DNA of 63,976 bases, filler included, from Chrysochromulina tobinii (Eukaryota), in NCBI GenBank assembly GCA_001275005.1. It is 6 parts of 6 records of this genome, joined end to end, with 100 filler letters (N's around TTAATTAATTAA, not from the genome) between each part and the next. Parts side by side here need not be neighbours in the genome. Positions count along the whole stretch, not along the records: positions 32,631 to 53,744 come from JWZX01000910.1; 5 more parts are not named here. One strand, written 5' to 3'. Below are positions 7,369-57,650 of this stretch, in pieces. How positions within the stretch are numbered: position 1 is the stretch's first letter; each line of letters opens with the position of its first letter. A program made the translations under genes and the position numbers. The notes beneath the pieces are model-generated. The model did not search any database, was not told the origin of the DNA, and saw only the letters and a list, made by a program, of their open reading frames with translations.

Positions 7369-9102
7369 ATGCAGCCGCAGTCCGATACGCCCTCGGCACT
7401 GTACAAGGTGGGCGATAAGCTCGTCCTCGCAGCGCCGGCCCACACGGGACTACCCAATGGCGCGGCTGCCATGGTGATATCGCTCCACCCGTTTGAGAGA
7501 GCGAGCGGTTGGTGCTACGGCGTGACGCTCATGGGATGTGGCGCGGACGGAAGCGGCATCCAGTTTGTCAAGTCGGTGCGTGAGACATGGCTCCGCACCG
7601 AGGGCCGCATTGCCACGGCCAAGTCGTGCGCGGCGATGTCCTTTGGCGCGTTTATGCGCCTGGCCCCGCAGATGGTCGTGCCGCTCTTCCAGAGGAGGTA
7701 CTGCTGGGGAGAGCCGCACTGGAGGCAGCTGTGGCGCGACATCGTCTCGCCTCGGCATCTCGTCTCGGCCAGCAATCCACACGCGATCGGGCGTGTGGTT
7801 ATCGCACGCGAGTTGGGCGGCACCGGAGCGAACAGACGCGAGGCGCTCGTGCTCATCGATGGACAGCAGCGCACGACAACGCTCATGCTGCTACTGTGTG
7901 CCGTGCGCGACGTAGCGCGCAGAGTTGATGCGCAGGCGGCGGCGCCGCTCTTGTCTGCCATCAACCACGTACTGCTGAGCCGCACGCGGACCACCCGCCT
8001 GCAGCACGGCGCTGCCGCCACCGCTCTTGCGACGCCCCTCGGCAGCGGCGGCGGCGGCGCCCAAAACGGCGCCCATAGCGGTGCCGCCGCCGCCAGCCGA
8101 CACGAGCTCATGTCGTCCACCATCGAGCAGGCTAAGATTGGTCTCGAGAGCCTCGCTGGTGCAGAGACGGTGAGACTCATACCCACGCGTGACGACCGTC
8201 TGCCTTTTTGCTCGATAGTGCTCTCCGCGCCGTTTGATCGCGCAGCCTCAGAAGGTGCGCGGAAGATGAGCGCATGCTATGACTACTACACGGCGCAGCT
8301 GCTCGCCTGGATGAGACACGATGGCCTCGGGGCCACTGACGAGGACACCATGAGTCAGACAGCGAGGAGCCATACGCCAGCAGGAGCGGCACAGGGCGCG
8401 GTGCACGGCGAGACGGCCGCGTGTATAGACGGCGGACTACCGCACCCCAAGCTCGCGCACCTCGGCTGCGAGATTCAATCTCCGGCGCACCTCGACTGCG
8501 AGATTCAATCTCCGGCGCACCCCAAGCTCGCGCTGCTCGACCGGCTGCTCGAGTTGAGCCTCCAGAAGCTCAGCTTGGTCGTCTTTGAGTTGCAGGACGG
8601 TGTGGCGCTGCAGAATATGTACGATCTTTTGGCGCAGCGGGAGCTCACCCTGAGTCACTTCTTTGCCGAGACGGGCGGCCAGGCGATGCGCCAGTCCGAC
8701 TTGGTGCGCAACCTGCTCCTCGGCCACATTGCCGACGAGGACGAGCGCTTGCAGGCGTATGATGACTGCTGGCGACCGGTAGAGCAGGCGAATGACGACG
8801 GCGACGCGCATTCCCTCGACGGGTTCCTGACGGCCTTCTTGCAATCAAAGCTGCCGGAGCCCGAAGGGAAGGGCAGTGTGGCAAAGGGCACTACGCCGGC
8901 AGGCGTGTCGACGGCGCTGCTCGAGGGCTTTGGTGCACTCGTGCGTGCGCATGGTGGCACCGCCGGCGCGATCAGACTGCAGGCCGTAGGCACCGTCGCG
9001 GCCAATGCGCCGGTTGTCGACAGTGACGCGGCGAGGTGTGCGGCTCTAGATCTGCTCAATCAGCTTCGAGATGCTGCAACGCGAACCCGTAGTGGCCATT
9101 AA
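7369..9102 (+). CDS. DUF262 (GmrS/ParB-like) domain protein with a small N-terminal SH3-like barrel; no HNH domain evident
   Basis: VVPLFQRRYCW, LVLIDGQQRTTT and M-x-QSDLVRNLLL motifs typical of DUF262; intronless 577-aa ORF; in-frame 30-nt tandem duplication at ~8455-8520. Confidence 0.8.
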   Translation: MQPQSDTPSALYKVGDKLVLAAPAHTGLPNGAAAMVISLHPFERASGWCYGVTLMGCGADGSGIQFVKSVRETWLRTEGRIATAKSCAAMSFGAFMRLAPQMVVPLFQRRYCWGEPHWRQLWRDIVSPRHLVSASNPHAIGRVVIARELGGTGANRREALVLIDGQQRTTTLMLLLCAVRDVARRVDAQAAAPLLSAINHVLLSRTRTTRLQHGAAATALATPLGSGGGGAQNGAHSGAAAASRHELMSSTIEQAKIGLESLAGAETVRLIPTRDDRLPFCSIVLSAPFDRAASEGARKMSACYDYYTAQLLAWMRHDGLGATDEDTMSQTARSHTPAGAAQGAVHGETAACIDGGLPHPKLAHLGCEIQSPAHLDCEIQSPAHPKLALLDRLLELSLQKLSLVVFELQDGVALQNMYDLLAQRELTLSHFFAETGGQAMRQSDLVRNLLLGHIADEDERLQAYDDCWRPVEQANDDGDAHSLDGFLTAFLQSKLPEPEGKGSVAKGTTPAGVSTALLEGFGALVRAHGGTAGAIRLQAVGTVAANAPVVDSDAARCAALDLLNQLRDAATRTRSGH

Positions 9103-32530: not shown

Positions 32531-32630
32531 NNNNNNNNNNNNNNNNNNNNNNNNNNNNNNNNNNNNNNNNNNNNTTAATTAATTAANNNNNNNNNNNNNN
32601 NNNNNNNNNNNNNNNNNNNNNNNNNNNNNN
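32531..32630. other. Artificial contig spacer
   Basis: N-TTAATTAATTAA-N. Confidence 0.97.
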
Positions 32631-33026
32631 GGAGACCGCGATCTGCGAGGGTGCGGAGGGTGCGACGCCGTCGCAGTACCTGCAGCGGGTGAGCAGTGCG
32701 GCGACGCTCACGCCGCCGTGCGCATCGCTCCGGAAGGAAGCGTCGCCGAGGGTGACGGTGCTGCCGGCCTCGATGGCATCGCGCGAAGAGCACATGGAAG
32801 AGCAGTGGCCGCCGGCGCCACCTCCGCCGCCCGGGCCTTTCGAGCGTGCCGCCTCGATGCCGAGGGGCGCCATGGCGAGCACGCCCCCGAACAACTGGTG
32901 GCCGACGGCACCGCCGAATGACTCGATGAAACGACCGTTGAGCGCGCGCCGCGGATCGGACACGCTCGAGAGCGCGGCCTGCAAGAGTAGTACCATCGCC
33001 ACGAGATGTCGCAGCCCAAGGCCCAC
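32631..33026 (-). CDS. Secreted or membrane protein, N-terminal fragment truncated by the gap
   Basis: Signal-peptide-like LVAMVLLLQAALSS; frame stays open into the gap. Confidence 0.5.
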
Positions 33027-34577: not shown

Positions 34578-36656
34578 ATGTCGGACTCCCCTTCGACTGC
34601 AGCGGTGCATGCCTGCGTTCATGGCTACGCCGAGGTACTTGGCGGTCTGGTGAGCTCCCGTGCCATCGATCCAGACGGCGCCGACCCTGCGAGCGGCCAG
34701 CGATACTTGGTTGTGGCGGCGCAGCACGGCCAAACCACGTGTGTCCGTGGCCTGCTCCAGAGCAAGGCAAGCCCTGATACACACGATTCGCAAGGAGATA
34801 CGCCGCTCTGCGTGGCCGCCTACTGGGGCCTTGCGGACGTGCTGGACGTGCTCCTAGAGCATGGTGCCAATCCCAACGTGCGGACCCAGAACGGTGAGGC
34901 TGCTCTGCACCGGGCAGCCTACAGGGGCTCCGCAGCTTGCTGCCGCATGCTGTTGGCAGCTTCGGCGGACATCACCGCGCGCGATGCCGAGGGCACGGCG
35001 CTCGACATGGCCACACGCCACGGGCACGACAGCTGTGCGGCCTTGCTCACCGCAGCCTGGATGCCTGATGCGCCCGTGACGGTCACCTTCGAGAACCGCT
35101 CGCCGTGGCCCTTGGTGCTGTGCTACCTGCTCCCCACCCCTGGGCTACCCGTCGGTCAAGCGTATACCCGCCCCCCCGAGCAGCCGACGGTGAGTCTCCC
35201 CCCCGGCGCCAAAAGGGTCTGCTCGACATTCGCAGGGCACGAGTGGTACCTTCGGTCTGAGAGTGATGGCACGCTGCTCGACACGTACATGGTGCGGAGC
35301 CCCGGCGGCGCGCAGCAACAGCATTGCATCTTCCCAAGCCTCGGGTGGGAATGGGAGGACGGGTCGCCTCAGAGCGGTCAGTGGCGCCAGTACGATCCCG
35401 AGCTGCTCCTGCGCCTCTTGCACGCGCATGCATCGGGCCACTCCATGCTCACTGTGCCTGATCCTCAACGGGGGGTCGACTACGAGATCAATCTGACGGA
35501 TCGCACGCAGCGCAATACGCGCACGGGCTTCGTCCGGCGGCTGCGCGCAGTCCCGCCGCCGCTGCCACCGCCACCATCCGCCGCCGAACTCCTCGCCCCC
35601 GGCGCGCCACTCGCGCAACTCAACGCCTTTCCTGGGGACTTTGATACGCCTCCGCCGTACTGGAGCCAACCCGACAGCCAGGACGGCGCTGGCAGCAGCA
35701 GCAGCAGCTCCCCCCCGGTGGTGCGGCGGCTCCCTTCGGGGGGGCTCAAGCAAGAGCTGCGTCCAGAGTCACCCGTCTTTCAAGAAGTACTCCAGATGCT
35801 TCGCGACTCCGGGACGGATCTGGCCTCGCTTCGCCTCTCGGCTATCTACTGCGTCGAGAACCGGGACTTCTTCCGCGAGTACCAGGCGCGTCGGAAAACG
35901 ATGCTAACCCGCCTCGGCCTTCCGCGACTGAACGAGCGCTGGCTGTGGCACGGCACGGACAGGGACTCAATCGACTCAATCCTTGCCAATGGATTCTTGC
36001 GTGACTATAACAATACCAGCGCGCATGGAAAGGGCGTGTACTTTGCCCGGCAGGCGGCGTACTCACTCTCGCGCAGGTACTCGAAGATCGACCCCAACAC
36101 CGGCGAACACTTCCTCCTCCTGTGCCGCGTGCTCGTGGGCGAGGCATGCGTCGGCAGTTCAGGGATGGAGCGGCCCACACGGAAGCCAAACAGCAACGCG
36201 TTGCACGAGAGTATGGTCGACCAGCTACCTGTAGAGCAGAGCCAGATCGTCGTCCTCTCCGCAGGCAGCGACAAGCAGGCCTACCCCGAGTTCGTCCTCA
36301 AGTTCCAGAGCGGAGATGGAGGCGGTGGTGGCGGCGGCGGTCGCGGCGGCGGTGGTCCCGGCGGCGGATTTGGTGGCGGGTTTGGAGGCAAAGGTGGTGG
36401 AGGCGGTCCTGGCGGCGGTCCCGGCGGCAGCTTCACATTTGGAGGCAACGGTGGTGGAGGCGGTGGCGGCGGTGGCGGTAAAGGCGGCGGTCCCAGCGGC
36501 AGCGGATTTGGTGGCGGCTTTGGAGGCAAAGGTGGTGGAGGCGGTGGTGGCGGCGGCGGTAAAGGCGGCGGTAGAGGCGGCAGCGGATTTGGTGGCGGCT
36601 TTGGAGGCAAAGGTGGTGGAGGCGGTGGTGGCGGCGGCGGTAAAGGCGGCGGTTAA
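34578..36656 (+). CDS. Ankyrin - VHL-beta - WWE - PARP catalytic (H-Y-I, mono-ART type) - Gly/FG-rich tail, copy 1
   Basis: Four to five ankyrin repeats; VTFENRS...STFAGHEWYLR (VHL beta); WEWED..QWRQY...YEINL..TQRNTRTGFVRRLR (WWE); WLWHGT, GKGVYFA, LLCRVLVG, QAYPEFVLKF (PARP). Confidence 0.92.
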   Translation: MSDSPSTAAVHACVHGYAEVLGGLVSSRAIDPDGADPASGQRYLVVAAQHGQTTCVRGLLQSKASPDTHDSQGDTPLCVAAYWGLADVLDVLLEHGANPNVRTQNGEAALHRAAYRGSAACCRMLLAASADITARDAEGTALDMATRHGHDSCAALLTAAWMPDAPVTVTFENRSPWPLVLCYLLPTPGLPVGQAYTRPPEQPTVSLPPGAKRVCSTFAGHEWYLRSESDGTLLDTYMVRSPGGAQQQHCIFPSLGWEWEDGSPQSGQWRQYDPELLLRLLHAHASGHSMLTVPDPQRGVDYEINLTDRTQRNTRTGFVRRLRAVPPPLPPPPSAAELLAPGAPLAQLNAFPGDFDTPPPYWSQPDSQDGAGSSSSSSPPVVRRLPSGGLKQELRPESPVFQEVLQMLRDSGTDLASLRLSAIYCVENRDFFREYQARRKTMLTRLGLPRLNERWLWHGTDRDSIDSILANGFLRDYNNTSAHGKGVYFARQAAYSLSRRYSKIDPNTGEHFLLLCRVLVGEACVGSSGMERPTRKPNSNALHESMVDQLPVEQSQIVVLSAGSDKQAYPEFVLKFQSGDGGGGGGGGRGGGGPGGGFGGGFGGKGGGGGPGGGPGGSFTFGGNGGGGGGGGGGKGGGPSGSGFGGGFGGKGGGGGGGGGGKGGGRGGSGFGGGFGGKGGGGGGGGGGKGGG

Positions 36657-40174: not shown

Positions 40175-40900
40175 TCAACGTCGAACGTGGCTAACACGAT
40201 AACGACGAGGACCGTGTGCAGTCGCCTGGCCTGTAAGAAGGCGATGGAGAGGGTGCAACGGCCCGAAGCTGCTAGCGGCGGCCGGAGCGGCGCCAAAGGC
40301 CGGGGCGCCCCTAAGCATGCCGCCAGCGGCAGCGGGCGCGGCAGCTGGCACCGGTGTGCCTCCGAAGAGGACGGCAGCTGGCGCCGGCATGTCAGAGGCA
40401 CTTTCGGCAACGATCTTGTCGATGGCACGGGATTCGAGAATATCGATTACATCATCAAACTGCTTGATGATACGTGCGATCGCTGCGTCGTCGGTGGGTG
40501 CTGGCTTTGCGATGAACATTCCTTGCCCCTCAAGCCAGCGCTTACGCTGCACCCTGGCTAGGTGCAACGCGGTGCACCCTTTCCGAGTAGCGCGGTGAAG
40601 ATCTGCGCCCGCGTCTAGGAGCAGCAAGACGCACTCTACGCTTGCATCGCGGGCGGCGATCATGAGAGGGTGTACCCCTTTGGGATTGGCACTATTGACG
40701 TCGGCGCCCGCCTCGATGGCCGATTGTAGCGCCGCCTCGTCCCCAGCTAGTGCAGCGTCGGCGACATCCCGAGCCAGTGCAGCGCCGTCGGCGACAAGCA
40801 ACACGCGGTCTTGAAGACTTTCCGTGCACATTGCACACGACGCACGAGAGCCTTGGACATGCGAGCACAGTGCCCCAGGTGGAGCGCTTGACTTTGGCAA
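40175..40900 (-). CDS. Ankyrin-repeat protein
   Basis: AIEAGADVN, GVHPLMIAA, LLLDAGAD, GCTALHLA; start uncertain. Confidence 0.75.
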   Translation of the reverse strand: MPKSSAPPGALCSHVQGSRASCAMCTESLQDRVLLVADGAALARDVADAALAGDEAALQSAIEAGADVNSANPKGVHPLMIAARDASVECVLLLLDAGADLHRATRKGCTALHLARVQRKRWLEGQGMFIAKPAPTDDAAIARIIKQFDDVIDILESRAIDKIVAESASDMPAPAAVLFGGTPVPAAAPAAAGGMLRGAPAFGAAPAAASSFGPLHPLHRLLTGQATAHGPRRYRVSHVRR

Positions 40901-41581
40901 ATGAGTGAAGCAAAAGAGGACGCCTCGAAATCTATTTGGGGCAACTCCTGGCTCCTCCTTTCAGGTTGGTCACAGCAAAACCCAAACGCAATCATAAGCA
41001 TCGATGACGAAAGAGATAGAGCTCGTTCGACTCCGGCCGACGACTCATACTCAAAAACACCAACCTGTTTTGTTAATTTTGTAAATTCTCAAGAGCAACT
41101 CAAAACCTCAGTTTCGTCGCGGTCCCCCCAGTGAGGTCGGCCTCTCCCAGCACACCCGCGCGCACACAGGGTGACCCCTATGGAGTGTGCCGAGCAAGCA
41201 AGTTGTTTCGACAACTTAGCTTGCTTGCTTGTGCCGAGCAGATGTAATGAGATGACACCCCGGCTTTTCAGGTGCTCTCGGCGCCGTCGCAGACATTAAG
41301 GCCAGGGCGATACCGAGGGGCTCTTGGGATTGGGAGAGCGGGTGGATGTACACGAAGATTTGCTTCCCCGTTTCCATGCGTTTCTCATCATGCTCCAACA
41401 CAAATCCAATGCAAAATCCCACATGATCCCACAGGAGCGGAAGTCGAGCACAAAAAACTCGCGAGGCAAACGTCGCCCCAGCCGCGGTGCGCAAGTCGAG
41501 CGCAAAGACGTAGGCGAAGTCTCAGCCGCATCTATCGCCAGGCCCAAGAGTACGAGCCACTCGCGGTGTGTCGCTGGCGAC

Positions 41582-44500
41582 ATGTCGGACTCCCCTTCGA
41601 CTGCTGCGGTGCTTGCCTGCGTTCATGGCAACGCCGAGGTACTTGGCGGTCTGGTGAGCTCCCGTGCCATCGATCCAGACGGCGCTGACCCTGCGAGCGG
41701 CAAGCGGTACTTGGTTGTGGCGGCGCAGCACGGCCATACCACGTGTGTCCGTGGCCTGCTCCAGAGCAAGGCAAGCCCTGATACACACGATTCGCAAGGA
41801 GATACGCCGCTCTGCGTGGCCGCCTACTGGGGCCACGCAGACGTGCTGGACGTGCTCCTAGAGCATGGTGCCAATCCCAACGTGCGGACCCAGAACGGCG
41901 AGGCTGCTCTGCACCGGGCAGCCTACACGGGCTCCGCAGCTTGCTGCCGCATGCTGTTGGCAGCTTCGGCGGACATCACCGCGCGCGATGCCGAGGGCAC
42001 GGCGCTCGAGATGGCCACACGCCACGGGCACGACAGCTGTGCGGCCTTGCTCACCGCAGCCTGGATGCCTGATGCGCCCGTGACGCTCACCTTCGAGAAC
42101 CGCTCGCCATGGCCCTTGGTGCTGTGCTACCTGCTCCCCACCCCTGGGCTACCCGTCGGTCAAGCGTATACCCGCCCCCCCGAGCAGCGGACGGTGAGGC
42201 TCCCCTCCGGCGCCAAAAGGGTCTGCTCGACATTCGCAGGGCACGAGTGGTACCTTCGGTCTGAGAGTGATGGCACGCTGCTCGACACGCACATGGTGCG
42301 GAGCCCCGGCGGCGCGCATCAACAGCATTGCATCTTCCCAAGCCTCGGGTGGGAATGGGAGGACGGGTCGCCTCAGAGCGGTCAGTGGCGCCAGTACGAT
42401 CCCGAGCTGCTCCTGCGCCTCTTGCACGCGCATGCATCGGGCCACTCCATGCTCACTGTGCACGATCCTCCACGGGGGATCGACTACGAGATCAATCTGA
42501 CGGATCGCACGCAGCGCAATACGCGCACGGGCTTCGTCCGGCGGCTGCGCGAAGTCCCGCCGCCGCCGCCACCGCCACCATCCGCCGCCGTACTCCTCGC
42601 CCCCGGCGCGCCACTCGCGCAACTCCGTGCCTTTCCTGGGGACTTACTTGCGCCTCCGCCGTACTGGAGCCAACCCGACAGCCAGGACGGTGCTGGCAGC
42701 AGCAGCAGCAGCTCCCCCCCCGTGGTGCAGCGGCTCACTTCGTGGGGGCTCCAGCGAGAGCTGCGTCCAGAGTCACCCGTCTTTCAAGAAGTACTCCAGA
42801 TGCTTTGCGACTCCGGGACGGATCTGGCCTCGCTTCGCCTCTCGGCTATCTACTGCGTCGAGAACCGGGACTTCTTCCGCGAGTACCAGGCGCGTCGGAC
42901 GACGATGCTAACCCGCCTCGGCCTTCCGCGACTGAACGAGCGCTGGCTGTGGCACGGCACGGACGAGAAGTCAATCCCGCTCATCCTTGCCAATGGATTC
43001 TTGCGTGACTTCAACACGCGCGGCGCGCATGGAAAGGGCGTGTACTTTGCCCGGCAGGCGGCGTACTCACTCTCGCCCAGCTACTCGAAGATCGACCCCA
43101 ACACCGGCGAACACTGCCTCCTCCTGTGCCGCGTGCTCGTGGGCGAGGCATGCGAAGGCAGGTCAGGGATGGAGCGGCCCACACAGAAGCCAAACAGTAG
43201 CGCGTTGCACGAGAGCATGGTCGACCGGCTACCTGTAGAGCAGAGCCAGATCGTCGTCCTCTCCGCAGGCAGCGACAAGCAGGCCTACCCCGAGTTTGTC
43301 CTCAAGTTCCAGAGCAGAGATGAAGGTGGCGCGTTTGGCGGCCGTCGCGGTGGCGGCCTATTTGGCGGCGGCTCTCCCTTTGGCGGGGTTGGAGGCAACG
43401 GTGGTGGAGGCGGCGGTGGCGGCGGCGGTCCCGGCGGCAGCGTATTTGGCAACGGCGGCCCCGGCTCTGCGTTCGGCTTTACGCCAGCGCCGGCAGCAAC
43501 CGTCGGCGGCTTTACCTTTGGCCCGAGCGCCGTGCAAGCCGCCGGAGCGCACGCAGCTTTACCTTTCGGAGCAGCCTCCCCCCTCGCCACCGCTGCTCCA
43601 GCAGCGCCCGCCTTCGGCGGCTTCGCCGATGCTCCAGCAGCCCTCCTCGCGGAGTGGGAGGGCTCGAAAGGCATTACGCTGCAGGACGAGACGCGCTCGA
43701 AGACGCATGCAAAGCTACAGTCGCAACTGGCCAAGATGCTTGTGAGGCAGGTCGTGTGCGTGCATTTCTTCGTTTGGGAGCGCGCCGAATTGGTGCTTCG
43801 CGAACTGGCCAGTGCATCGCAAACTGGCCCCGAGGGGGAGCGTGCCGTGTGTGCCACCATCGCCACGCAGGTGATCGATACCTGCGCGACGATGGTAGAC
43901 AAGCAGCCGGGGATGGCGTACGCGCTGTCGGGCTTCGTGCTGCACGTGGGCGAGAGGTGCCCGGTGCTTTGGGAGTGCCTTCTCGCGCGCCTGCAGGCCT
44001 CGTGCTGCTACTGCGTCCCATACTACCCGGAAAAAACGACCGGCAACACGGACGAGTTTAAGAAGCGCCTTGGCTACACGCAGGGTGAGACCAAGAAGGA
44101 CTTTTACGCGCGCATGGCGGGGTACGTGACGCTGTACGCCGCGCTGCTTCAGCAGTCGTCGATTGCCCAATTCCCGCCGCAGTCGGCCGGAAACGCGCTT
44201 TTCGATAGGACCAGACCAGACGCAAAGATGCAGACGCGTCCAGTGCAAGGGGGCTTTGCACCCAAGGGGGTTTCGCCCATGGCGCGCGCATGGGCGTGGC
44301 TCGCCCGGCTGCTCAACCATCCGCCGGGGAACATCACCGCGACCATCCTACTTGCGTTCCTCAAGCCGTGCGCGCGCGCGCTTTCACGCGCTTACCCCAC
44401 GCAATTCTCGAAGCTTTTGAGCTTCCTCCAAACGACTTACTTAGCCAAAATCCGCGGCATGGTCGCTGGGCAAGGCAACCCGGCCGAGGAGGAAGCAGCC

Positions 44501-44641
44501 CGCGTGAACCTCGTGTCGTGGCTCACAGACACGAACGCCCTGCTTGCAAAAGGGGGCCGTGTCCCCGAGCCGAAAGAAGCTGATATGCCAGAGTACAAGC
44601 CGCCCGACGACCTGAGCGACACCAAGGGGACTTTTGATTAA
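41582..44641 (+). CDS. Ankyrin - VHL-beta - WWE - PARP - FG repeats - Gle1-like domain, copy 2
   Basis: Same N-terminal domains as copy 1; FG motifs (GAFG, GLFG, SPFG, SVFG, SAFG, FTFG, LPFG, PAFG); C-terminal LLARLQASCCYCVPYY, KRLGY, FYARMAGYVTLYAALLQ, AWAWLARLLN, ATILLAFLK, QFSKLL match Gle1 C-terminal domain motifs. One uninterrupted ORF. Confidence 0.88.
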   Translation: MSDSPSTAAVLACVHGNAEVLGGLVSSRAIDPDGADPASGKRYLVVAAQHGHTTCVRGLLQSKASPDTHDSQGDTPLCVAAYWGHADVLDVLLEHGANPNVRTQNGEAALHRAAYTGSAACCRMLLAASADITARDAEGTALEMATRHGHDSCAALLTAAWMPDAPVTLTFENRSPWPLVLCYLLPTPGLPVGQAYTRPPEQRTVRLPSGAKRVCSTFAGHEWYLRSESDGTLLDTHMVRSPGGAHQQHCIFPSLGWEWEDGSPQSGQWRQYDPELLLRLLHAHASGHSMLTVHDPPRGIDYEINLTDRTQRNTRTGFVRRLREVPPPPPPPPSAAVLLAPGAPLAQLRAFPGDLLAPPPYWSQPDSQDGAGSSSSSSPPVVQRLTSWGLQRELRPESPVFQEVLQMLCDSGTDLASLRLSAIYCVENRDFFREYQARRTTMLTRLGLPRLNERWLWHGTDEKSIPLILANGFLRDFNTRGAHGKGVYFARQAAYSLSPSYSKIDPNTGEHCLLLCRVLVGEACEGRSGMERPTQKPNSSALHESMVDRLPVEQSQIVVLSAGSDKQAYPEFVLKFQSRDEGGAFGGRRGGGLFGGGSPFGGVGGNGGGGGGGGGGPGGSVFGNGGPGSAFGFTPAPAATVGGFTFGPSAVQAAGAHAALPFGAASPLATAAPAAPAFGGFADAPAALLAEWEGSKGITLQDETRSKTHAKLQSQLAKMLVRQVVCVHFFVWERAELVLRELASASQTGPEGERAVCATIATQVIDTCATMVDKQPGMAYALSGFVLHVGERCPVLWECLLARLQASCCYCVPYYPEKTTGNTDEFKKRLGYTQGETKKDFYARMAGYVTLYAALLQQSSIAQFPPQSAGNALFDRTRPDAKMQTRPVQGGFAPKGVSPMARAWAWLARLLNHPPGNITATILLAFLKPCARALSRAYPTQFSKLLSFLQTTYLAKIRGMVAGQGNPAEEEAARVNLVSWLTDTNALLAKGGRVPEPKEADMPEYKPPDDLSDTKGTFD

Positions 44642-44840
44642 CATCCGTGACCTGGTCGCTGGGCTAGAGGTCGCCGGGCAAGGCAACCCGGCCGAGGAGG
44701 AAGCAGCCCGCGTAACCTTCAAGTCGTGGCTCAAAGACATGAACGACCTGCTTGCAAAAGGGGGCTGTGTCCCCGAGCCGAAAGAGGCTGATATGCCAGA
44801 GTACAAGCCGCCCGACGACCTGAGCGACGTCAAGGGGGCG
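44447..44840 (+). repeat. Tandem duplication of the last ~190 bp of the PARP-Gle1 gene
   Basis: GGGCAAGGCAACCCGGCCGAGGAGGAAGCAGCCCGCG ... GACGACCTGAGCGAC occurs twice; the second copy is out of frame. Confidence 0.92.
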
Positions 44841-45295
44841 CGGGGGGGGGCGAGGGGGGCAACTTTTAATAACGGGGGGGGAGTGGTCGAGAGCTTGTGC
44901 ATGAGGTGTAAGGATATGTACATGGAACTGTACAGCGCTGTGCTGTGTAGCCGGTCAGCCCGCGGTCGCGGGTAGGAGCGTCGAGACGCGCCCGTTGCAT
45001 TACCGTTGCATTAAGAAAGTGCATTAAGTAATTGAAACCGCCGCCACCTCCGCACGCCAACGTGGACGGTCGGACGGCGTCGTCCGTCGAGACGCCGCCC
45101 TTGCCACACCGCGCCGATCGACGAACGATAACGGGGGTTGCGGGCCGGGGGCATGCCTCGAGGCAATTCGTCCTCGGCTCTTGATTTTAGATTTACGCAC
45201 TGGCTGACCGCACCACGCTTCCGTTCTCGCTTAGGGTAAAAAGTGAGGGCATTCGTGGCGTAAAACGGTAAAAGTTCATCCGGACACTCCCTACT

Positions 45296-55106: not shown

Positions 55107-56126
55107 ATGTCCTCATGGAACCGATTGATCGCGGCGACGCTCGTCGTCACGTGCAGCGCGGGCGCGACACGTGATGAGCTCATCATCCGCCCGCTGCCTC
55201 GCGCGCCTGGCCAGGAGGCCTTTGGCGCCGAGGTGCTCAACCTCGCACTCGACGGCGGCATGCCGAGCGCCGAGGTGCTCGCAAGGCTTGAGGAGGCGCT
55301 GTCGACGCACGGGCTGCTCGTGCTGCGCGCCGCCGCCCTCGAGCACGTTCCGCCGCAGAGCTTTGCCGCCTTTGTCCACCACTTCAACCCGGGCACCACG
55401 ACCGTGTGGCGCGATCAGCGCACCAACCCTTGGGAGCGGTACAAGGCGGAGGCGATGGGGCCAGCGGGAACGTTCCAGTTGCCATCGTGCCCCGAGACGC
55501 TCGTCATCGGCAAGGGCGAGCTCGTCGACCACTGGGGTCTCACGTGCACCCTGGGCGGCAAGCGTGCCGCCTACGGCAAGACGAGCGGCAGCCAGGTCAT
55601 CGGCGGCGGCAAGCTGCAGTGGCACATCGACGGTGCGTTTTGGTCTGCGCCTGGGTCAACCGCGACGGGACTGCCGTGCCCGGTAGTCGGGATGCGCTGC
55701 GTCGAGGCGCCCCCCGCGCGCATGGTCAGCATTGCCTACGGCGACGGTGTGAGCCTCGACTGCCCAGCGGGCTCCACCGTCTTCTGCAGCGGCGCTAGGG
55801 CGTACGACCTTCTCTCGGCGACCGAGCAAGAGCGCGCTCGGCGTACTACGGTGGTGTACAGCCCGCACCCGTTCAAGCGCTTTGCAAAGCTCGGCATGAG
55901 CGGCGACGGGCTGCGCTGCGAGGGCGACGCCGCGCTCGAGACGGCGCTCGCGCCTGACGAGCGCAGCGGGCGACTTCGACTGCCCCTCGTGTGGTTTCAT
56001 CCGCGCACGGGGCGGGCGGCGCTCATGCCGCTCACGCGCTGTCTCGAGCGGCTCGAGGTGTGGAGCTCGGCGGAGCAGGCGGCAGCCGCGGCCGAGCGCG
56101 GCACGGCGGCGGACGCCGATGCCGAT

Positions 56127-56175
<49 letters not shown>

Positions 56176-57650
56176 AGGGTGCGGAGGTGGCGGCCAAGGC
56201 GGCGTGCGCTGTGTCGGGCGCTGATAGCGCCGTGTCGGGCGCTGGGAGCGCCGTGTCGGGCGCTGAGGGTGCCGTGTCGGGCGCTGAGCTGATCGAGCTG
56301 CCGGCAGCTCGTACGTACCTGCATACGCTCATGCGGCGCGCGGCGGAGCCGGGCCTCGTCCATGCCGTCGATTGGCGCCCTGGCGACTGCGCCATCTGGG
56401 ACAATCACCTCATGTGGCACTCGGCGACGGGCGGGTTGCCCGACGATGCGCGGCGGGTGATGCACCTCGTCGCGTTCGATGGCACGCGGCCGCCGCTCGC
56501 GCGTCCGCCTGCGGGCGTGGAGCCGCCGCTCCCGCCGCCACCGCCGCCGCCCAATACGGCGCCGCCGCCCAATACGGCGCCGCGGAGGAGCATCGGCATC
56601 GGCGCTCGAGGCAGCGCTCAGGCGAGGCGCCGTGGTGAGCGCCCCTCCTCGGCCTCCGGCTCGCCCCACATGGACACGGAGCGCCGTGGTGAGCGCCCCC
56701 CGCACGTGCTCGGGCTCATCATCGGGCAGACGCCGCGGGACGACCTTGCGCAGCCGTTGCGACGTTCCCTGGATCTCGCGTGCCTCAAGTGTGCCCCTCT
56801 GCGCGCATGGCTGCCCACAGGAGGGCTGGAGTGTAGCGTGCGAGGCGCGATGGATGGAGTGAGCGAGGCCGACCTCGCTCGACTCTACGGCGTCGTGAGG
56901 CGAGCGCCACCAGAGGCGGAAGCGGCGGAGGCGGCGACGGCGGGAGGGGCAGCCTCGGCGGAGAGAGCAGCTATCTCGAATGCGGAGATTGCCGCTATCA
57001 CGGACGCGAAGATAGCAGCGGCCGCTGCACCCGCGTCATCACACGTGAGCTCATCCCCATTCGGCAGCTCGTGCCCTTTGATCACACGCCTCGCCTCAGG
57101 TCAGCCAGTCGCGGCCTCCGAGGATGCCCTCACGCCTCTACTGCAGCGGCAGTTGGACACCGCCGCTGAGGCTGTGTCGGGCGCTGGGCGGCCGGATCAC
57201 GCCTTCCTGCTCTGCGCGGGCCGCTTCGACGGGTTGCATGCGCCAGATGGGATCTCCCTCATTAAGCCCTTTGAGTGCGCGGCGGCGATAGCGCTCGCGC
57301 TTGGGGTGACCGACGCCGTGCTGTGCGTGCCCACCGACGAGCAGGCGCCGCATGCCATCGCTCGCTGGCGCTCCCGCCTCTCGCCCGCCGCCACGCTACG
57401 CACATGCACGCTGCCAGAGGATCCGGAGGAAGGCGCGCTCGCGTGCGTCGTCGACGCGGCCAAGGGCCTCCGCCCCGGCGCTGCTGTCATCCTCGACTTT
57501 GTCGGCCACCCGCCCGAGGTGGCGGCCGCGCTGCGGCAGCGACTCCGGGATAGCAGGCCCGTGGCCGCCGCGACGACCACGGTCATCGACGTGGGCGAGG
57601 CGGGCTTGGCGCAGCTGCGCGCCGCGCTCATGACGCAGGCGGGGGCCTGA
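55107..57650 (+). CDS. TauD/TfdA-family Fe(II)/2-oxoglutarate dioxygenase (XanA-like) fused to an AroM-family domain
   Basis: WHIDG (HxD), GSTVFCSG..AYDLLS, VVYSPHP, LPLVWFHPRTG, DWRPGDCAIWDNHLMWHSA, RRVMH; C-terminal IIGQTPRDD, GAMDG, LITRLASGQPV, PLLQRQL, LLCAGRF, LIKP, VILDFVGH. Confidence 0.8.

Follow-up and report, generated by a model that had tools for sequence, protein, structure and literature searches.

A predicted mono-ADP-ribosyltransferase joined to a Gle1 C-terminal domain in one open reading frame of Chrysochromulina tobinii

The fusion gene and its domains

The window analysed here, that is, the whole stretch of 63,976 nucleotides (nt) from Chrysochromulina tobinii (assembly GCA_001275005.1, six parts joined end to end), contains an open reading frame (ORF) that runs without interruption from ankyrin repeats through a VHL beta-domain-like region, a WWE domain and a PARP-type ADP-ribosyltransferase (ART) domain into a linker rich in Phe-Gly (FG) dipeptides and the C-terminal domain (CTD) of the mRNA-export factor Gle1 (Table 1). 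A sequence-only reading of this DNA had described the same order of domains, and it is borne out by the open frame of 1019 amino acids (aa) and by Pfam, which recognises Ank_2, WWE, PARP (3.8e-16) and GLE1; the VHL part is weaker, with VHL chains as the best PDB matches between the ankyrin repeats and the WWE domain. An in-frame ATG also lies upstream, at 41390, but the start at 41582 is favoured because RNA contigs begin at 41465-41472 and homology to a tandem paralog begins at 41498.

The best solved relatives of the ART domain are PARP14 and PARP15. Residue I557 aligns with the third triad position of PARP14, giving H-Y-I, and with the triad classes taken from the parts of PMC8795897 cited here this H-Y-hydrophobic triad is of the mono-ART type; mono-ADP-ribosylation is the predicted activity. 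At the other end, the last 333 aa give a confident fold model (predicted local distance difference test [pLDDT], 83), the ten best PDB matches of which are all Gle1 CTD chains (TMq, 0.59 to 0.72), and the fusion thus has both PF07817 similarity and the Gle1 fold across the entire domain. A Gle1-like domain had been proposed at about 43720-44540; its identity stands, by Pfam and by fold, whereas its extent had to be corrected, since the cassette starts about 80 nt earlier, at 43643. The N-terminal region and the coiled coil of Gle1, present in proteins P0232 and P0005, are absent from the fusion, and the PARP half takes their place. At its 3' end the Gle1 cassette has a tandem duplication of 169 nt (44461-44837), and the end of the second copy resembles the C-terminus of a second clade of fusions (the P0002 clade, see below).

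The PARP-Gle1 junction was checked against contigs of four runs and is bridged without mismatch in one DNA run and two RNA runs. In RNA run X14, contig X14/17 spans 41467-43721 with 0 differences and covers the 5' end, the PARP part, the linker and 79 bases of the Gle1 cassette; DNA contig X1/5 and RNA contig X15/30 each span 43267-43721, again with 0 differences. No single contig covers the entire ORF in these runs, and the contigs cannot prove one mRNA through the entire Gle1 part; a break past 43721 is expected because the cassette is multi-copy. The contig depth in X1, which is 55 over the junction, 120 over the PARP half and 194 over the Gle1 core, fits several copies, although it gives no copy number. 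RNA cover is missing at 41200-41461 and 44868-45100 in all three RNA runs while DNA continues, a weak hint of transcript ends. Neither misassembly at the G-rich tract nor separate transcripts nor a lack of Gle1 similarity was found, in contigs that stop short of the whole Gle1 part. The whole fusion ORF is present in 3 of 21 fetched loci, one of which is possibly the window's own source. Furthermore, 13 of the 15 listed cluster members have 1075 to 1098 aa, the fusion was seen in 4/4 inspected, and it also occurs in alleles at 95% identity.

Table 1. Features of the fusion gene, its tandem paralog and other parts of the window
Feature	Position	Strand	Evidence
Fusion ORF, Ank-VHL-WWE-PARP-Gly/FG-Gle1 CTD, 1019 aa	41582..44641	+	Open frame; Pfam; RNA contig starts 41465-41472
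Ankyrin repeats	41612..42016	+	Pfam Ank_2 6.8e-22; Ank_5 up to aa 145
VHL beta-domain-like region (weak)	42074..42286	+	PDB VHL chains E 0.006; Pfam VHL 0.033 in paralog
WWE domain	42350..42550	+	Pfam 5.7e-9
PARP14/15/10/12-like putative mono-ART catalytic domain, triad H458-Y488-I557	42761..43312	+	PDB PARP14 2.9e-22
Gly/Ala/Pro-rich linker, 8 FG	43316..43642	+	Homology to paralog tail stops at 43458
Whole Gle1 CTD cassette and C-terminal tail common to closest distant relatives	43643..44638	+	Pfam 7.2e-35; fold; 87-95% nt to other Gle1 copies; alignment
Tandem second copy of Gle1 3' end (169 nt, 92%), passing into 3' flank homologous to that of coiled-coil Gle1 gene	44669..44919	+	
Tandem paralog, Ank-VHL-WWE-PARP with Gly tail, no Gle1, 692 aa	34578..36656	+	93% nt over 1970 bases; Pfam
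Ankyrin gene, 218 aa, divergent, Ala/Pro/FG tail	40175-40831	-	
LRR-Roc (ROCO) gene, 1569 aa	112-4821	+	
ORF with GmrSD N-terminal domain	7369-9102	+	E 3e-17
TauD dioxygenase fused to AroM domain	55107-57650	+	
N run with six-frame stop spacer	32532-32631		

Paralog, second clade and sibling fusions

A Gle1-less PARP paralog lies in tandem 7 kb upstream of the fusion and is 93% identical to its PARP half at the DNA level. Differences between the two are dense around the HGT motif and the donor loop (aa 462-500; window 42960-43200 versus 35960-36200) and may confer different target specificity. Between the two PARP genes lies a 218-aa ankyrin gene, the product of which is weakly similar (31%, E 2e-7) to an ankyrin insert in the central region of two Nup214 proteins (P0272, aa 659-730; P0274, aa 634-688).

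The same fusion, with the same linker, is found in a second clade (P0002, P0216 and P0217). P0002 is 86% identical to the window fusion, and the two differ by 138 aa and 13 gap blocks without a stop; under neutral change the chance of this is about 0.003, in a sample in which only proteins returned whole by gene callers are visible. A single origin of the PARP-Gle1 fusion is not rejected (approximately unbiased [AU] test, p 0.51), nor is it shown. The P0002 clade branches outside the clade that contains both window paralogs, and therefore the fusion probably predates the local duplication. Sister clusters of the fusion include proteins of C. tobinii and C. parva, which places the host in Chrysochromulina. 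Of five distant Ank-WWE-PARP relatives (36 to 48% identity in the N-terminal half), none carries Gle1. The 3' flanks of the window fusion and of the coiled-coil Gle1 gene are homologous (80%, up to 44919), and therefore this canonical gene is the likely donor; other fusions share a different flank, and the Gle1 tree did not resolve the order of the fusions. Our model of the origin is that the canonical Gle1 gene contributed its 3' end to an Ank-VHL-WWE-PARP gene, the joint lying within the Gly-rich tail of the latter or just behind it.

The same Gle1 cassette, beginning at the position that corresponds to 43643-43650, recurs in other genes. Besides the three whole PARP fusions, the 21 fetched loci comprise 3 parts of the PARP fusion, 8 coiled-coil Gle1 genes (one a fragment), 2 genes in which a Nup214 propeller is followed by an FG tract and Gle1, 3 DDX19-Gle1 loci, 1 short form and 1 distant Gle1. 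The largest sibling (L010:1803-8918) encodes an FG-rich NACHT-LRR protein of 2372 aa with intact Walker motifs, whose tail is a complete DDX19 helicase (best match Dbp5/DDX19, 1.2e-86) followed by the Gle1 CTD. Both of its junctions, LRR-DDX19 and DDX19-Gle1, are spanned without a difference in X1 (DNA; this run also holds the PARP fusion) and X15 (RNA). The Nup214 beta-propeller-FG-Gle1 CTD fusion (L008:2363-5299 and L015; 979 aa, 11 contigs) has a propeller that matches the N-terminal domain of human Nup214 (2.9e-8); the annotated C. tobinii Gle1, KOO35157, belongs to its cluster, and L015 has the same assembly prefix as a PARP-fusion locus (L001). In P0307, P0304 and P0300, further arrangements appear, namely the C-terminal end of DDX19 with a Gle1 that is newly extended at its C-terminus, and a Gly-rich leader joined to Gle1.

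Gle1, DDX19 and Nup214 also exist unfused. Unfused DDX19 has 468 aa and is 91 to 96% identical to the NLR-borne copy, with 7/7 checked motifs in both; an unfused Nup214 with coiled coil and FG tail (P0272) stands beside the Nup214 fusion; and the separate canonical GLE1 for which the sequence-only reading had proposed a search is present as an unfused coiled-coil Gle1, the N-terminal part of which aligns with distant Gle1. In a wider survey (150 representatives listed of 725 at E ≤ 0.001), the 52 representatives of at least 600 aa were scanned for domains: GLE1 stood alone in 49, another domain was present in 3 and PARP in 0. Gle1 was seen with RIP and ricin-B lectin, with mTERF and with P4Ha_N (weak) in P0076, P0100 and P0118, three unrelated representatives that are possibly merged gene models.

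Proposed DDX19 docking and antiviral defence, and competing explanations

We tentatively read the fusion as a DDX19-docking mono-ART in antiviral defence, the best of the explanations considered and a possible, though not yet a probable, one. The Gle1 CTD would be an address module that docks the protein on the export helicase DDX19, the ankyrin, VHL-beta and WWE parts would supply further contacts, and the ART would write mono-ADP-ribose on the mRNA-export machinery or on viral factors that co-opt mRNA export.

The condition of the fused domain is consistent with docking. It retains 59 of 60 columns that are invariant across five distant and five coiled-coil Gle1 proteins, and to judge by these residues it is not a decayed decoy. 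The Q-x-x-K motif on the Nup42 side of Gle1 is kept. A complex model of the fused Gle1 with Chrysochromulina DDX19 scored 0.80, compared to 0.00 for the best of three controls; at least 76% of contacts are common to its runs, and the partner has a pLDDT of at least 85. The mark used for such models was reached by 51/78 solved versus 2/108 mismatched microbial pairs and by 39/65 versus 2/126 eukaryotic ones; since the Gle1-DDX19 complex has been solved, this pass may merely reproduce the known complex and speaks for likeness rather than for binding by this copy. The fused Gle1 is predicted to dock on DDX19 through the second and fourth helices of its model, and at 32 to 34 of the 39 predicted contacts it has the same residue as the canonical coiled-coil copies.

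Several IP6- and Dbp5-contact residues, to which the sequence-only reading had drawn attention, are altered, yet the canonical Chrysochromulina copies share the changes. The fungal-type basic pocket for inositol hexakisphosphate (IP6) is largely lost: the position of yeast R374 is kept (R117), and that of K333 is T. The KK preceding the conserved Cys, which we take to have a role in IP6 binding, reads AS, and AA or AS also stands there in several distant relatives. We rejected the idea that the lost IP6 lysines mark a decoy, as the loss is lineage-wide, the pocket changes being common to the canonical Chrysochromulina Gle1. Human Gle1, according to the parts of PMC5998080 cited here, works without IP6.

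The step to defence is drawn because in a sibling fusion a receptor-type NACHT-LRR protein carries both DDX19 and Gle1; it also leans on literature about animal mono-ARTs, a C. parva virus, a NACHT gene of G. huxleyi and the use of DDX19 by influenza virus, the polymerase of which reportedly recruits this helicase. In animals, interferon induces mono-ART genes, several of which are under positive selection (PMC9087173, in part), the C. parva virus lacks an RNA polymerase and its transcription is likely nuclear (PMC12085832, in part), and a NACHT gene is raised in virus-recovered G. huxleyi (PMC12489294, in part). Scans of viral contigs with the Gle1 cassette, DDX19 and the PARP domain, made with single-sequence patterns that reach close relatives only, gave no relative. 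A wider proposal, which we consider somewhat doubtful, is that the duplicated export parts (Gle1 CTD, DDX19 and Nup214 propeller) form a Chrysochromulina defence kit, in which an NLR with a DDX19-Gle1 sensor and a mono-ART that reaches DDX19 via the Gle1 CTD would block or supervise export once it is co-opted by a giant virus that depends on the nucleus. If true, this would be an algal immune system guarding the exit step of the nuclear pore.

Several observations weigh against a DDX19-docking defence enzyme. The ratio of nonsynonymous to synonymous substitution rates (dN/dS) is 0.59 to 1.05 for the window Gle1 cassette versus five close copies (0.31 to a distant Gle1), 0.53 to 1.34 over all close cassette pairs and 1.06 (confidence interval, 0.69 to 1.85) for the PARP half versus the paralog, values that are compatible with relaxed selection and with an arms race alike and that are blurred by gene conversion or collapsed assemblies. 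The core of the cassette is near-identical among copies, the ends differ and variation is concentrated in the N- and C-terminal helices; therefore, some of the conservation could be due to conversion by the canonical gene. Variation at the predicted DDX19 face is not enriched (16/39 versus 119/294, p 1.0). At K479, Q487, E491 and H495, the human DDX19-contact positions named in the parts of PMC5998080 cited here, the fused Gle1 reads T, T, M and Q, as the canonical Chrysochromulina copies do. Eight FG motifs had been called nucleoporin-type, and the count is right, but the label describes composition only, and a nucleoporin origin is no more than a possibility. The tract is not diagnostic, since the 114-aa Gly tail of the Gle1-less paralog, to which the first half of the linker is homologous, has 7 FG and the unique half (43459-43642) had no match among the loci compared; outside the Gly-codon tract, the linker and the Nup214-fusion locus do not match at the DNA level, and 22 FG were counted in the NACHT-LRR protein. 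As to the data, the runs with the fusion gene may stem from a single campaign, X1 possibly being the source of the window; in one record (L016), 42549 is joined to 43418 at a 10-base GGC microhomology so that the PARP domain is skipped, out of frame, likely a template-switch or assembly product. One DDX19-Gle1 record (L017) ends out of frame as well. Close PARP relatives carry other tails, UBA or SH3-like (a label given from sequence), and with such tail swaps the lineage shuffles domains freely.

One rival explanation is a near-neutral chimera, in which very active duplication and recombination at Gly/FG-rich tracts spread the Gle1 cassette and the product is expressed and tolerated without a selected joint function. 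dN/dS near 1 among the copies, the many tail swaps together with the cassette variants P0204, P0206, P0304 and P0307, the tandemly repeated Gle1 3' end, the out-of-frame DDX19-Gle1 record and NACHT-LRR parts that are highly repeated in a DNA run are all consistent with it. We nevertheless regard it as unlikely: the frame has stayed open across the differences between the clades, in every close copy the cassette begins at the start of the Gle1 CTD fold, and two of the three foreign fusions combine Gle1 with one of its own partners (DDX19 or the Nup214 propeller), a pattern that random shuffling would not favour.

The integrated decoy that the sequence-only reading had raised, in which Gle1 baits viral effectors, is rather unlikely; in the form considered here, the bait would be for a viral factor directed at mRNA export, and its binding or modification would switch on the ART or a paired NLR. 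An immune setting gains indirect support from the sibling NACHT-LRR protein, which carries DDX19 and Gle1 as extra domains behind intact Walker motifs; a canonical Gle1 is retained, and the variation in the terminal helices of the cassette would suit a bait. A pure decoy is weakened, however, by a domain that is conserved rather than degenerate and keeps most of its contacts, by a DDX19 face that is neither lost nor diversifying, and by the absence of any viral effector, be it known already or found here.

For a housekeeping regulator of mRNA export, that is, a functional analogue of PARP11 tethered via Gle1 and FG repeats, one may cite the predicted DDX19 binding and the retained Q-x-x-K motif. 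PARP11, which has the H-Y-I triad, is mainly at nuclear pores (PMC8795897, in the parts cited). Yet such a regulator is distinctly improbable, as dN/dS well below 1 would be expected and the fusion is seen in this lineage only, with Gle1 in none of the five distant Ank-WWE-PARP relatives and PARP in none of the 52 long Gle1 proteins. Finally, an assembly artefact or two genes joined at the G-rich tract is very unlikely, because in spite of the low-complexity junction, the multi-copy cassette, the tandem paralog and the lack of a contig across the whole ORF, both DNA and RNA runs cross the junction with 0 differences and the fusion recurs in the 95% alleles and the 86% clade.

Elsewhere in the window (Table 1), the GmrSD domain represents a bacterial-type restriction module in a eukaryotic context, and the N run, a join of separate contigs, lies upstream of both PARP genes; a ROCO gene and a TauD-AroM fusion are also present.

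Comparison with known systems

The sequence-only reading knew of no precedent for this fusion; likewise, we found none for Gle1-PARP in the literature and nothing on Chrysochromulina Gle1, in a search that most subscription papers lay outside. The Gle1 fusions are testable candidates for how microalgae sense and resist giant viruses and for a possible role of ADP-ribosylation in regulating the mRNA export that DDX19 drives. In addition, the natural fusions of Gle1 with DDX19 and with Nup214 are ready-made tools for export mechanics, and should the neutral explanation hold, this would still be an uncommon example of an essential gene being shuffled rapidly.

Compared to the Gle1 CTD of human GLE1 and yeast Gle1 (PF07817; PDB 6b4f, 6b4i and 3rrn), the fusion has the same fold over the whole domain and predicted DDX19 docking, but it lacks the N-terminal region and coiled coil, has a PARP attached, belongs to a multi-copy cassette and differs in several IP6-pocket and DDX19-contact residues, as does the whole lineage. 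With the mono-ARTs PARP10, PARP11, PARP12, PARP14 and PARP15 it shares a PARP14-like catalytic domain, the H-Y-I triad and a preceding WWE domain; in contrast to them, it has ankyrin repeats and a VHL-beta region in front and Gle1 behind, and no macrodomain, RRM or CCCH finger was found. To our knowledge, the alga has no interferon signalling. The WWE-PARP-only layout of PARP11 is not matched, given the extra Ank, VHL and Gle1 parts, and the closest solved chains are those of PARP14 and PARP15.

[quoted passage not shown] Unlike the plant integrated decoys, the PARP fusion has no NB-LRR, its bait is not degenerate, no effector is known and the integrated domains are mRNA-export factors. In the Gle1-Nup42-Nup214-DDX19 export platform, the parts are normally separate proteins, whereas here duplicated pieces are covalently joined beside intact parents, the sibling fusions joining the Gle1 CTD to its own platform partners. 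In sum, the fusion is best placed as a putative targeted mono-ART within an integrated-domain-like set, and it is neither a canonical Gle1 nor a PARP11 nor itself an NLR-ID.

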